Assembly (NCBI RefSeq): GCF_016433145.1
Contig: NC_058133.1
Span: 476,105,058-476,169,057, forward strand
Reading direction: 5' to 3'
Length of the DNA stretch: 64,000 nt
Origin: Gracilinanus agilis
Taxonomy: Eukaryota
Numbering within the stretch: the stretch's first letter is position 1; the number at the start of each line of letters is the position of its first letter. The notes under the pieces are model-generated. The model had not been told where the DNA came from and did not search any database. It saw only the letters and a list, made by a program, of their open reading frames with translations. Positions 30,125 to 36,143 of the stretch are shown in pieces. Made by a program: the position numbers and the translations under genes.

Positions 30125-30418
30125 GTGAGTCTGTAGTCCTTCCCCCATATGTCTATCAAACCATAGGATTAAGAACTCTTTTTGCAGCCCTTTACCACTC
30201 TCTCAATGTAGAGCCTGATTTTTTTGTTTAGAATGTTGTGGAGTTTATAAGCTTGTCCTAGCTGTTGATGGCAGGAGAGGATACAATTGTGAGAATTAAA
30301 AAACAGTTTGTTCCCCTTTTTCTTGGTACCCTAAGATCAGTCTTGTGGGGGTTTCTCTAGTTAATTGGGTTTCCATTCAGCCCCCACCCTTTGATTGGGT
30401 TAAGAACAAGGCCTGAGG

Positions 30419-31883
30419 GGTTCCGGGTTAAGATGGCGGCAGAGTAAGAAGCAGCTCTTAACCTCTCCTGACCGAAACACACAAAACTCCTCAAGGGGAC
30501 ATAAAAACAAGTCCAGACGAACGGAGGAACCCCACAACAGGGCACAGCGTGGAAGGTACGTGGAATCGAGACATTTCCAGGCTAAAAAGGGCTCTCACTC
30601 ACTCAATCGCAGGCTGAGCAACCGCCCCACCCCCACCCCCTCCACACTCACCTATAGCTCCGAACCCAGCTAAAAAGAAATAGAGCAAGTTTGGGGCACC
30701 CATCGAGTCATCGGCAGCTCCGGGACCTGTTCCTGAGAGCAGCAAGACTTAGGACCCCATTAAGTCAAGAACACACGCGAAATCTGAGCGCACGGGAGCA
30801 GGACGCTGGGCGCGCGCCCGCTAAACAGAGGCGTGGGTGCTGGCTGAGCAGAGGCGTGGGCGTGGGTGGAGGCGGACACAGCCAGGAACTAAAGCCTAAG
30901 TGGGGAACCAGTGCAGACGGGTATACGACTGTGGAAGCAGCGCCCTGAGACTTGTAAAGAAACCTCCAGCAGAGGATCAAGCAAGGGAATCCACCAGGGG
31001 GCTTGACCTTGGAAAAAACTAGAACTCAGACCTCAGGACTGAGCGCGAGGATAAACCTGAGAAGCTGCTGGGCTAATGATGGCTAATCAGTTACAGGAAA
31101 TTCAGAAGAGAAAGAATAATAACAAAAAAAAGAAGTCTCTAACACTCGACAGCTTTTACACAGAGAAAATCCAGACAATTGAGCAAACAGAGGAGGAGAA
31201 CAAACAACCATCCAGACCCTCCCCAAATAAGGAAAACTCCTCACAAGCTATGGAAGAGTTCAAATCTGAGATTTTGAGGAAAATGGAAGAGATCTGGCAA
31301 GAAAACAACAGCTTAAAAGGTAGAATCTTGCAACTGGAAAGCGAGGCTCAGAAACCAAATGAACTGATAAGTAAATTGAACACAAGAAATGACCAGATTG
31401 AAAAGGAATACCAGAAGATTATGGCCGAAAACAAGAAGATTATGGCCGAAAACCAAAAGATTATGGCCGCTTACCAGAAGATTATGGCCGAAAACCAAAA
31501 CATTATAGCCGAAAATCAATCCCTAAAGGCTAGAATTGAGCATGTAGAAACTAATGATCTCTCAAGACAACAAGAACAAATAAAACAAAGCCAAAAGACT
31601 GAAAAAATAGAAGGAAACATGAAATATCTCAATGAGAGAGTGACAGACCAAGAAAACCGGTCTAGAAGAGACAATTTGAGAATAATTGGTCTTCCAGAAA
31701 AATCAGAAATTAATAAAAACCTGGACTCTATACTAACAGAAATAATTCAGCAAAATTGCCCTGAAGTCCTACAACAAGAGGGCAATATAGACATTGAAAG
31801 AATTCATAGAACACCTGCGGCATTCGATCAAGAAAGGAAAACACCAAGAAATATCATTGCAAAATTCAAGAGTTTCCAAGCAA
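30419..31883 (+). mobile_element. LINE-1, 5'-intact (5' UTR + most of ORF1) and 3'-truncated
   Basis: 5' end GGTTCCGGGTTAAGATGGCGGC; 17-bp TSD AAGAACAAGGCCTGAGG at 30402-30418 and 31884-31900. Confidence 0.92.
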
Positions 31884-31930
31884 AAGAACAAGGCCTGAGG
31901 CTTAACTGTATAATGAGGATGCCTCATTGA
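31076..31930 (+). CDS. L1 ORF1p, truncated after the RRM (last ~13 codons from the TSD and flanking LTR)
   Basis: Coiled coil, then ENRSRRDNLRIIGLPE, DIERIHRT, PRNIIAKF; uninterrupted 284-codon ORF. Confidence 0.85.
   Translation: MMANQLQEIQKRKNNNKKKKSLTLDSFYTEKIQTIEQTEEENKQPSRPSPNKENSSQAMEEFKSEILRKMEEIWQENNSLKGRILQLESEAQKPNELISKLNTRNDQIEKEYQKIMAENKKIMAENQKIMAAYQKIMAENQNIIAENQSLKARIEHVETNDLSRQQEQIKQSQKTEKIEGNMKYLNERVTDQENRSRRDNLRIIGLPEKSEINKNLDSILTEIIQQNCPEVLQQEGNIDIERIHRTPAAFDQERKTPRNIIAKFKSFQAKEQGLRLNCIMRMPH
31412..31515 (+). repeat. 21-nt tandem repeat in L1 ORF1 (heptad QKIMAEN, ~5 copies)
   Basis: CAGAAGATTATGGCCGAAAAC and variants in tandem. Confidence 0.9.
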
Positions 31931-31982
31931 ACCACCTAAGATTGATTTCAGGTCAACCCCATAACCTTTATGACTTTCTCAT

Positions 31983-32051
31983 AAGATATTAGTAAAAGCA
32001 TTACATAACTTTGCCATAGTTAAATCATAGGTTTAAAACCTATATGTCTTA
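31983..32051 (+). pseudogene. NUMT copy of mt tRNA-Asp with GCC anticodon
   Basis: Anticodon arm TAACT-TTGCCAT-AGTTA (32006-32022); T arm ATAGGTTT/AAACCTAT; lies directly before COX2. Confidence 0.88.
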
Positions 32052-32240
32052 TATGCCTTATCCTATACAACTAGGCTTCAAAGATGCCACATCCTCTAAT
32101 TTAGAAGAACTCATATTTTCATGACCACACATTAATGATTGTGTTCCTAATTAGGTCCTTAGTGTTATATATTATTGTTCTTATAGTTAAAACAAAACTC
32201 ACTCATACTAGCACAATGGATGCTCAAGAAGTAGAAACAA

Positions 32241-33202: not shown

Positions 33203-33268
33203 TCATTTTTGAGTAAACTAAAATAATACTTTAAAGTATAAATGAGAAATTATATCTTCTCAAAAACA
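33203..33268 (+). pseudogene. NUMT copy of the degenerate marsupial mt tRNA-Lys region
   Basis: Between COX2 and ATP8; acceptor-like TTTTTGAG/CTCAAAAA pairing; anticodon region is the palindrome TACTTTAAAGTA. Confidence 0.65.
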
Positions 33269-33270
33269 AT

Positions 33271-33709
33271 ATGCCATGGGGACAGCTGGGTAGCTCAGTG
33301 GATTGAGAGCCAGGCCTAGAGACGGGAGATCCTAGGTAAAAATCTGGCCTCAGACACTTCCTAGATGTGTGACCCTGGGCAAGTCACTTGACCCACATTT
33401 GCCTACCCTTACCACCCTTCCACCTAGGAGCCAATACACAGTATTGACTCCAAGACAGAAGGTAAGGGCTTAAAAAAAAAAAAAAAAAACCCAATATGCC
33501 ACAATTAGATACTTTCACATGATCAATCCTTAACCATTGTATTAATAATTATCTCCCTATTCTGCACTTAGCAGCTTAAAATAAATGAACCAAAACATAA
33601 TGTCAGTTGTTCTTGGACAGAACAAACAAAAGCCCTAAAAATAACACTACCTTGAGAAAAAAAATGAATGAAAATGTATTTGCCCCATTCATCACACCTT
33701 CAATTTTAG
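33271..33709 (+). pseudogene. ATP8: NUMT ATP8 (SINE inserted after codon 2)
   Basis: ATGCCA|SINE|CAATTAGATACT = MPQLDT; overlaps the ATP6 start. Confidence 0.85.
33277..33491 (+). mobile_element. SINE1 in NUMT ATP8
   Basis: 10-bp TSD CAATATGCCA at 33267-33276 and 33492-33501. Confidence 0.9.
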
Positions 33710-34315
33710 GTATTACAACCCTACCTATCATCATTTTATTCCCATGTCTCATCCTAACATCCCCTAAATAATGATCACCAAATCACATTCAAATTCTACA
33801 AATCTGGCTAATCTGCTTAATTACCAAACAAATTATGACAATACAAACAAGCAAGGTTGAACTTGAGCTCTAATACTAATATCTCTAGTTCTCTTCATCA
33901 CCTTTACTAACCTCCTAGGCCTCCTCCTGTACTCCTTCACGCCAACTACACAATTGTCCAAAACATTGGAATAATTATCCCACTATGAGCAGGATTCCAA
34001 AATAAACCAAAAATATCTTTAGCACACTTTCTACCTCAAGGCACTCCCACCCCTCTAATCCCAATACTTATTATCAACAATTAGCCTATTTTTCCAACCT
34101 TTGGCATTAGACTTACAGCCAATATTACCACAGGACACCGATTTACTTATTCATCTAATTGGCTCAGCAACTCTAGCTCTCTCTTCAATCAGCATAACCT
34201 GACTCAACCTTTGCATTCACTATCCTATTCCTCCTGACAGTTCTTGAACTAGCGATAGCCATAATTCAAGCTTGTGTTGTCACACTACTAGTAAGCCTCT
34301 ACCTACACCACTTAA
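33664..34315 (+). pseudogene. ATP6: NUMT ATP6
   Basis: MNENVFAPFITP start; [40 protein letters not shown]; frameshifts. Confidence 0.9.
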
Positions 34316-35210
34316 TGACCCACCAAAACCATGACCACCAACAGGAGACTTTCAGCACTACTTCTAACCTCAGGCCTTATTACAGGATTCCTCACCTCTC
34401 CTGACTATTGAATTCATCTCTATACTCCTGACAATGTACTAGTGACGACAAGGCATTGGACAAGAAGGAACATTCCAAGGACATCACACACCCATAGACC
34501 AAAAAAGCCTACAATCGGGAATAATCCTGTTTATTCTGTCAAAAGTGTTCTTCTTCATCAGCTTCTTCTGAGCATTTTATCACTTTAGCCTAGCACTCAC
34601 GCCTGAATTAGGAGGCTGCTGACCAACAAGAATTCACACACTCAACACCCTAGAAGTCCCCCTATTAAATCCTTCTCACCTCAGGAATCTCTATCACATG
34701 AACCCATCACAGCCTCATAGAAGAAAACTGAAAACAAATCATTCTGGCACTTACCAGTGCCATCCTACTAGGCTTTATTTCGCCAGGGTACAAGGGGGCA
34801 GCTGGGTAGCTCAGTGGATTGAGAGTCAGGCCTAGAGATGGGAGGTCCTAGGTTCAAATCCAGCCTCAGATACTTCCCAGCTGTGTGACCCTGTGTGTAA
34901 AGAATTAGACAAGTCACTTGACCCCCATTGCCCACCCTTACCACTCTTCCACCAAGGAGCCAATACACAGAAGTTAAGGGTTAAAAACAACCAGTGTACA
35001 AGCTACAGAATATTACAAAGCCTCATTCACCATCTCAGATGGCATTATTGGCTCAACCTTCTTCATAGCCACAGGCTTCCACGGCCTACACATAATCATT
35101 AGCTCAACATTCTTAATAGTATGTCTACTACATGGATTCTACTTCCTCTTCATTTCAATCCACCACTTTGTATAACTATTCCTATACGTCTCTATCTACT
35201 GATGAGGTTC
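34315..35210 (+). pseudogene. COX3: NUMT COX3
   Basis: MTHQNH start; [37 protein letters not shown] segment; deletions. Confidence 0.88.
34794..34990 (+). mobile_element. SINE1 in NUMT COX3
   Basis: TSD CCAGGGTACAA (34783-34793) / CCAGTGTACAA (34991-35001), one mismatch. Confidence 0.85.
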
Positions 35211-36143
35211 TTATTTTTATTAGTTAGTACTGATCACCAATATTAAGTTTGGGGTAAAACCAGAGAAAAATAATTAACCTAATTATCACATTATCACCTT
35301 GTCATCCTGGAAGACATTTGCCTCTTTGTCTCACATGACTCCTGGCATCCAGAAGACGCCTCTGACCCAAACTAAGGTCAAGTTTGTCCAACCAAGAAGA
35401 CTCAGAAAAAGTGGCATCACCAGGGGTATAAGTTTAGGGATTGAGGAAGCATCGTGCTCTCTGTTTCCTGGAGAGGCAGCAAGTGCCCTTTCCTAGGAAG
35501 CATCAGGAGTGAACAGGGACTTGCAGTGAGCAATATGAGCTCCGGTTAGCTTCATAGCCGGCCATGTGATTCTGTGCCTTTTCTCTCTCCAACTCTCTTT
35601 CATTATTTAGCAAATAATTATAAATTAATATACAGTCTCCAGAGAATTTTTATCTTAACACAATAGAAACAAGAATCATAGTCTCTACCTTTAAGGAACT
35701 TTAAATCTATTTGAATGGAGCTATTCAAAATTAATAATCAGGTTATGTTCTCTTTATTTAACTACTCATCTTTTATCTATATGCCCCAAAATATCTTGTC
35801 TGTTCCTTTCTATACCTAATTCTATGCAATTCCCTATAAAATTCAGGTGATTCACCATGAAATAATTAATTGAGTTATGAATTATTAGGTGATATTCTTA
35901 TAGAAAGGATTGTGAGAGGATGGATTTGGCCCCTTTCCCAATCTTGTTAACCATCTGGCCCCACCTCCCCTTTTCACAGCTTTTGATGGTTACTAATTAA
36001 CTCAGGGGAAAATTTAAAGCTAGACAGAAGGGAAAGGGATTCTTAGGGTCATGTAAGATGTTAAGAACTGATCCAATTATAACCAGACACTTTTGTTCAT
36101 TTAAATAAGTTGTGTCCCTCCTTTCCTCCTCTTTTCTCTACAC

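Follow-up and report, generated by a model that had tools for sequence, protein, structure and literature searches.

The window analyzed here, a stretch of 64,000 nucleotides from the marsupial Gracilinanus agilis (contig NC_058133.1 of a 3.70-Gb genome, positions 476,105,058 to 476,169,057 of the forward strand, numbered below from its first letter), carries a nested stack of insertions in the last intron (30125-36710, 6.6 kb) of a gene that we take to be PRUNE1. The outermost element is a solo long terminal repeat (LTR), within which lie a young L1 retrotransposon lacking its 3′ end and a nuclear segment of mitochondrial DNA (NUMT); the NUMT in turn holds five further inserts, namely four short interspersed elements (SINEs) and the tail of an older L1. 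A preliminary description, made from the letters alone, had proposed this architecture, and our analysis confirms it: all the features that it reported, including the TG...CA termini with their perfect CAAT duplication, are found where it placed them.

The LTR, the mitochondrial block and its inserts

The LTR begins with TG at 30288, ends with CA at 35659-35660 and is bracketed by two copies of its 4-bp target duplication, CAAT (30284..30287 and 35661..35664). Once the inserts are set aside, three forward-strand pieces remain: a 5′ piece (30288..30418), the final 17 bp of which are the target duplication of the L1, a middle piece (31901..31927) and a 3′ piece (35297..35660) with the CA at its end. 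The left and right pieces were searched separately, with 40 candidates scored and 30 loci fetched for each (one being the window's own), and the left, middle and right pieces all match one dispersed multi-copy family. The pieces are colinear in 41 of 58 other copies, where their spacing departs from exact adjacency by between −10 and +50 bp, with exactly 7 bp extra relative to the window's pieces in 13 of these 41 and 17-18 bp extra in seven; the remaining 17 copies are partial alignments or have larger indels or inserts. Both ends are present in 29 copies, ranging from 344 to 737 bp; in 19 of these a 4-bp duplication can be recognized with no more than one mismatch (five exact), and none shows a duplication of 5 or 6 bp. 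Since the family makes 4-bp duplications, CAAT is its target duplication at this site; this and the 41 colinear copies together rule out a chance CAAT or a juxtaposition of two LTR families. The claim that a single continuous LTR encloses the locus is therefore supported, as the pieces neither belong to different families nor match non-adjacent positions. Judged from these alignments, the element at 30288-35660, minus its inserts, is one solo LTR.

In its TG...CA termini, its length of about 500 bp and its membership in a dispersed multi-copy family it resembles solo LTRs left by endogenous retroviruses that make 4-bp duplications, and we take it to be class I/ERV1-like. It differs from them in that no internal region was seen beside the 13 copies whose 1.5-kb flanks were translated and scanned by eye for recognizable frames of a retroviral interior. 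Other copies are 82-88% identical to the left piece (40 scored matches), and the median divergence from 31 well-aligned copies is 21%, which corresponds to about 10% per LTR copy.

The mitochondrial block (31926..35298, forward strand) comprises part of tRNA-Ser, tRNA-Asp, COX2, a tRNA-Lys relic, ATP8, ATP6, COX3, tRNA-Gly and the start of ND3, running from within tRNA-Ser to the first ND3 codons. It aligns to positions 7680-10263 of the mitogenome (contig C60714, 16,336 bp, recognized by its genes and tRNAs), with 1902 of 2440 columns identical (78%) and many small gaps. The block that had been described as a 3.4-kb NUMT is real, but only 2,461 bp (2.46 kb) of its 3,369 bp are mitochondrial and 907 bp are later inserts. 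At its junctions there is no target duplication, about 4-7 bp of the LTR are lost and 2-bp overlaps fit both sides at each end, the right-hand one being deduced from a diverged mitogenome. From these features, together with the ends lying inside genes, the lack of poly(A) at gene ends and an unedited tRNA anticodon, we infer that a DNA fragment was joined into a break. The first, second and third codon positions diverge from the mitogenome by 16%, 8.9% (56 differences at 631 sites) and 45%, respectively, and the small gaps and second-position changes are those of neutral decay. The ATP6 tree has 25 rows, NUMT loci with fewer than 500 aligned bases and two that equal the mitogenome having been omitted. 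There the block belongs to an old cohort, support within which is weak, and its terminal branch is the shortest of that cohort (0.076 versus 0.109-0.177), making it the least decayed of the eleven old-cohort copies on the tree. Like the intronic mammalian NUMTs covered in PMC10764098, which also describes opossum genomes as NUMT-rich, it is a contiguous multi-gene segment, decayed and in a repeat-rich setting; unlike them, it is bracketed by one LTR, so that its position in the sequence of insertions is fixed on both sides.

The NUMTs matched by this region (L092-L120) form two groups, with divergences of about 3% or less versus 6-14% at second codon positions; the long empty branch between the groups looks as if there had been two bursts of capture, in a sample biased to the best 30 matches. 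One chromosomal locus (L098, G000 C2 near 441.86 Mb) shows no difference from the mitogenome over the 2,098 coding positions that could be compared; it is either a NUMT of very recent origin or a product of the assembly.

Each of the five inserts within the NUMT, the number given in the preliminary description, is flanked by a duplication. On the forward strand are SINE 1 (32241..32443; 15-bp duplication at 32226 and 32444), SINE 3 at the start of ATP8 (33277..33491; duplication with an exact part of 10 bp at 33267 and 33492) and SINE 4 (34795..34990; 11 of 12 bp at 34783 and 34991); on the reverse strand are the 5′-truncated SINE 2 (32493..32640; 15 bp at 32478 and 32641) and the final ~80 bp of the 3′ untranslated region (UTR) of an older L1 (32705..32787; 10 bp at 32695 and 32788). 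All four SINEs are of one family and diverge by 3.2, 4.4, 5.1 and 6.2% from a 25-copy consensus with CpG sites masked. The L1 tail is 82-89% identical to other copies (11-18% diverged), several of which are preceded by L1 coding remnants. Endonuclease-like target sites are present at four of the five inserts. SINE 1 and SINE 2 constitute an inverted pair (32288-32641), 126 bp apart and 90% complementary over 114 bp, that could form a hairpin in the pre-mRNA.

The tailless L1

The young L1 (30419..31888, forward strand) is flanked by a target duplication, the two copies of which (from 30402 and at 31884..31900) agree in all 17 bp, with positions 31884-31888 fitting L1 and target alike. It had been described simply as a truncated L1 with a 17-bp duplication; this holds, with the refinement that the truncation is at the 3′ end and not the 5′ end, so that what was missed is that it is of the rarer tailless, 3′-truncated kind. 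It starts at the first bases of its family, differs from the nearest copy by 9 mismatches in 1,463 bp (0.6%) and has a 5′ UTR of 660 bp (56% GC, CpG ratio 0.62) that points in the same direction as the host gene. ORF2, the 3′ UTR and poly(A) are absent from 30419..31888. A 283-residue reading frame (31079..31930, forward strand) consists of 270 of the 368 residues of ORF1p followed by 13 from the target DNA, with its stop in the first bases of the NUMT; the RNA-binding domain is matched up to position 78 of the 98 in the profile. Within the region coding for the ORF1 coiled coil (31388-31519) there is a 21-bp repeat in about five copies, the number of which differs in steps of 21 bp among young L1s.

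The 3′ end of this element is not shared by its relatives. All 27 close copies that hold the anchor (29 were fetched) read through it, as do all 29 distinct places recovered in a pattern search that gave 81 matches, of which 30 loci were fetched and 51 were not, one being the window's own; four copies that seemed truncated in this search proved false, the sequence carrying on in L1 or reaching a gap. In having a promoter region, ORF1 and a flanking duplication but lacking ORF2, it recalls the half-L1 elements (HAL1) depicted in PMC5322556. However, those are multi-copy, tailed families, whereas the window L1 has an incomplete ORF1 (270 of 368 codons), no poly(A) and is the single copy with this end; with none of the 27 and none of the 29 copies ending here, neither identity with HAL1 nor a half-L1 family with this end was borne out.

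Internally primed L1 and Alu insertions were reportedly described by Srikanta and coworkers in 2009, and the junctions of the window L1 suggest that its truncation, too, is likely due to internal priming. The element breaks in an A-rich tract whose last five bases double as the start of the 17-bp duplication, and its target is itself an endonuclease-like site. A primer released by a nick at TT/AAGA would have 5 terminal bases paired with the internal tract (7 of 8 overall), as against just 2 with poly(A); according to PMC3649969, the L1 reverse transcriptase needs at least 4 terminal matches for efficient priming. Tailless copies with duplications are ascribed to internal priming in PMC5322556 and PMC5402677, although the former notes for Alu that recombination between internal and terminal A-tracts gives the same appearance. 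The internally primed tailless L1 and Alu insertions and tailless retropseudogenes treated there (PMC5322556) share with our case the 3′ truncation, the lack of poly(A), the duplication and an RNA end complementary to the target; the cases compared are human Alu and small-RNA copies, whereas the present one is an L1 of a marsupial, complete at the 5′ end, with 270 open ORF1 codons and at an endonuclease-like site.

We also followed 86 other distinct 5′-intact L1 copies for up to 2.3 kb, having set aside ten L1 rows without a 5′ end: 53 run into a gap, 12 reach the end of the locus, 17 continue and 4 break. One of the copies that break, at L063:905-2972 (minus strand; G000 C3 near 597.58 Mb), is a second young tailless L1 with an intact 5′ end and a complete 368-residue ORF1. 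It stops in the spacer after ORF1, and its flanking 12-bp duplication resembles the L1 tract at the break point (8 of 10). It is a candidate for a second case of internal priming and would stand nearer to a half-L1 than the window L1 does. In three further young L1s (L062, L154 and L159), ORF1 or the spacer gives way abruptly to apparent later ORF2 sequence, through internal deletion, splicing or assembly collapse.

Order of events and competing explanations

Contigs of four runs (of 20 listed) were aligned to positions 29900-32220 of the window. In run X6 (organism C), contig 25 aligns first to 29901-30350 and next to 31884-32032; the 53 letters in between compare with 51 in the window LTR, and the second part has 12 differences. 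By this layout organism C has the exon, the LTR and the NUMT junction, and no L1. A contig of run X5 (organism B) extends from the exon 58 bases into the LTR, and the LTR start at 30288 is common to organisms B and C. Joints of 30345 to 31884 in runs X5 and X18 were not used, as they possibly stem from other LTR copies; only contig 25 of X6 is anchored in the exon.

The resulting order is the LTR (~10% diverged), then the NUMT (8-9% at most), then the L1 tail and the SINEs (3-7%), and finally the L1 (0.6%). The first three steps are fixed by the nesting, and the L1 is placed last by its divergence and by the empty site in organism C. The clock agrees with the nesting order of LTR, NUMT, NUMT inserts and L1, which supports the earlier suggestion that the locus can serve as a relative clock for repeat families. 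Of the order originally proposed, the LTR preceding the NUMT and the NUMT preceding its five inserts stand; the placement of the L1 alongside the NUMT, before the SINEs, does not, since nesting sets no order among these and the L1 is 0.6% diverged against 3-6% for the SINEs, with an L1-empty site in organism C.

We consider it likely that an old solo LTR in the last intron was broken by a NUMT captured during repair, that the NUMT then received four SINEs and an L1 tail, and that the LTR was finally broken again by a young, probably internally primed L1, the whole being probably neutral. A provirus would first have integrated with a 4-bp duplication and lost its interior by LTR-LTR recombination; mitochondrial DNA would then have been captured by end joining at a break; the five NUMT inserts would have arrived by target-primed reverse transcription; and, lastly, a nick at TT/AAGA would have freed a primer that paired with the internal A-rich tract of ORF1 in the L1 RNA, with copying reaching the 5′ end of the RNA. 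Every one of these steps is a known process, and no new mechanism is required.

Several observations weigh against this account. SINE 4 is without an endonuclease-like site, and the account does not explain the excess of SINEs in the NUMT. LTR and NUMT give similar clock values (about 10% versus 8-9%), both based on best-match copies. The empty L1 site of organism C is documented by one contig of one run, and the L1 junctions, that at the 3′ end included, are bridged on neither side by any listed contig of run X1. Internal priming and a later deletion from the internal tract to the tail leave identical sequence, and young L1s in the assembly frequently run into gaps (53 of 86).

The SINE excess bears on the claim of the preliminary description that the site was repeatedly broken or accessible. 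Four SINEs in the 2.46 kb of NUMT compare with an expectation of 0.14-0.50 (Poisson p of 2e-5 to 2e-3 under three background rates), and the same family has 13 matches in the other 58.6 kb of the window. NUMTs as a general magnet for SINEs can be rejected, since 14 other old NUMT loci hold only 3 SINE matches in 24.3 kb of mitochondrial-derived sequence and the density of endonuclease target motifs is ordinary (7.7 per kb in the NUMT versus 8.2 elsewhere). The sparsity of SINEs in those other NUMTs would, along with the excess itself, favor a true hotspot in which open chromatin or fragility of this intron draws insertions, an idea that would add to the above account rather than replace it. 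We nevertheless regard it as unlikely: the spot was chosen post hoc for its density, at these p values, 1.5 million such intervals should contain tens to thousands of clusters as dense, the motifs are not enriched, and NUMTs often sit in transposon-rich regions, according to PMC10764098. The cluster is a real local excess that was picked for its density and shows no fragile site; a repeatedly broken or accessible site is unproven, with a pre-existing break being required by the NUMT only.

The alternative for the L1 is that it inserted at full length on its poly(A) and later suffered a microhomology-mediated deletion from the internal A-rich tract to the tail. The tract and the junction of tail and target would then share 7 bp, and 3 of the 86 other 5′-intact copies do break without a duplication, with the sequence after the break resembling later L1 in L062 and L159. 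However, this would demand two events within 0.6% divergence, a deletion that removed the whole tail yet kept all 17 bp of the duplication, and initial priming on poly(A), with which the target pairs over only 2 terminal bases, and we deem it improbable. It is considerably less credible that the short L1 is an assembly error, in which a full-length young L1 was wrongly closed across the 5-bp overlap. The frequent gaps at young L1s and the missing read-level bridge over the 3′ junction would be in keeping with such an error, but the right flank has neither an L1 3′ end nor a tail, there is no gap here, and the assembly reads through the tract in all 27 close copies and all 29 pattern-selected places. 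Finally, that the NUMT was captured by a provirus or LTR elsewhere and then carried here has nothing in its favor beyond the nesting itself and is largely refuted, hence extremely unlikely, as no other close copy turned up (of 91 candidates for 33490-34780, 40 were scored, and the best of these are 68-83% identical) and mitochondrial sequence stands at none of the LTR junctions in the 41 colinear copies.

Host gene, possible effects and significance

The stack is preceded by the penultimate exon of the host gene (29966..30124, forward strand), with a GT donor at 30125 and a weak match to the DHHA2 profile (E 0.015, under the curated cut-off). The last coding exon (36711..37142, forward strand), a 143-residue frame preceded by an AG acceptor, has no match in Pfam or PDB, and PDB searches with the host exons gave nothing useful. 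Pfam matches to BNIP2 and PMSI1 lie downstream of the host gene. The identification as PRUNE1, the likeness of the last exon to that of PRUNE1, the order of neighbors, and the exon number and intron number (7) are presumptive. The last base of the penultimate exon, 30124, which belongs to the splice site, is G in the window, whereas all four aligned runs, that of the same organism included, have contigs with A; the difference could be allelic or a misassembly. Farther on, at 45168-48329, an open frame of 1,054 codons includes a long region of Glu/Gln-rich repeats and ends in a PMSI1 domain (E 1e-29); such a repeat expansion in a gene with this ending strikes us as unusual.

Two tRNA copies of the NUMT deserve attention. 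That of tRNA-Asp (31982..32052, forward strand, called by ARAGORN) retains the unedited marsupial GCC anticodon, the editing of which in marsupial mitochondria is described in PMC11571959; together with the degenerate tRNA-Lys, such an anticodon is a marsupial hallmark. The tRNA-Asp copy has no Rfam match at the gathering score, nor does a search of the whole window with Rfam yield any. At 33203..33265 (forward strand) the degenerate mitochondrial tRNA-Lys is preserved in an older state. Arranged by cohort (window, L092-L119), this relic shows an AT-rich D-region in the old NUMTs and a pyrimidine loop in the young ones. In 20 distinct rows, which are related by descent and were compared on a structure drawn on the modern sequence, 94% of cells are standard pairs, with one anticodon-stem pair being A-U in 6, G-U in 3 and G-C in 9 rows; of the 26 NUMT loci that include the relic, 6 were left out (the most decayed, one short and one identical to the mitogenome). 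As a lead, the relic appears to stay paired across NUMTs while its sequence turns over, which may fit the proposal, made in PMC11571959, that the degenerate tRNA-Lys is kept for transcript processing. Our literature search found no published work on this locus or on marsupial tRNA-Lys NUMT fossils, though it was conducted mostly without subscription journals and is thus no proof of absence.

As to function in the host gene, sense-strand mitochondrial tRNA copies in introns (nimtRNAs) can affect splicing in human cells, as reported in PMC7722341. The window copies share this placement, and that of tRNA-Asp still scores as a tRNA; they differ from the nimtRNAs of that source in being without sign of constraint, since the tRNA parts of the NUMT are 10-12% diverged, not below the 8.9% at second codon positions. 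It is possible that the tRNA copies or the L1 5′ UTR affect the host gene; nonetheless, the stack is probably functionless and neutral. A more elaborate scenario, which we think very unlikely, is that the L1 switched the stack on: its CpG-rich promoter, lying in the direction of the gene, would have caused the LTR and the mitochondrial tRNA copies to be transcribed and given the host a new 3′ end (AATAAA sites stand at 31579, 31712, 33580 and 34001), while the 283-residue ORF1p, with its coiled coil and no C-terminal domain, would poison L1 particles in trans. Tailless promoter-plus-ORF1 copies, such as those in the window and at L063, would then be a recurring product of the family and raw material for half-L1s.

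With eight events at one site, the locus offers a clean teaching case and a set of presence/absence markers, at least one event, the L1 insertion, being younger than the split from the relative that shares the LTR and the NUMT. The NUMT-held older states of tRNA-Lys make the processing-mark role raised in PMC11571959 testable with dated fossils. Finally, 5′-intact tailless L1s in the youngest family of this genome, two of which were seen, should make the rate of internal priming measurable in a marsupial.

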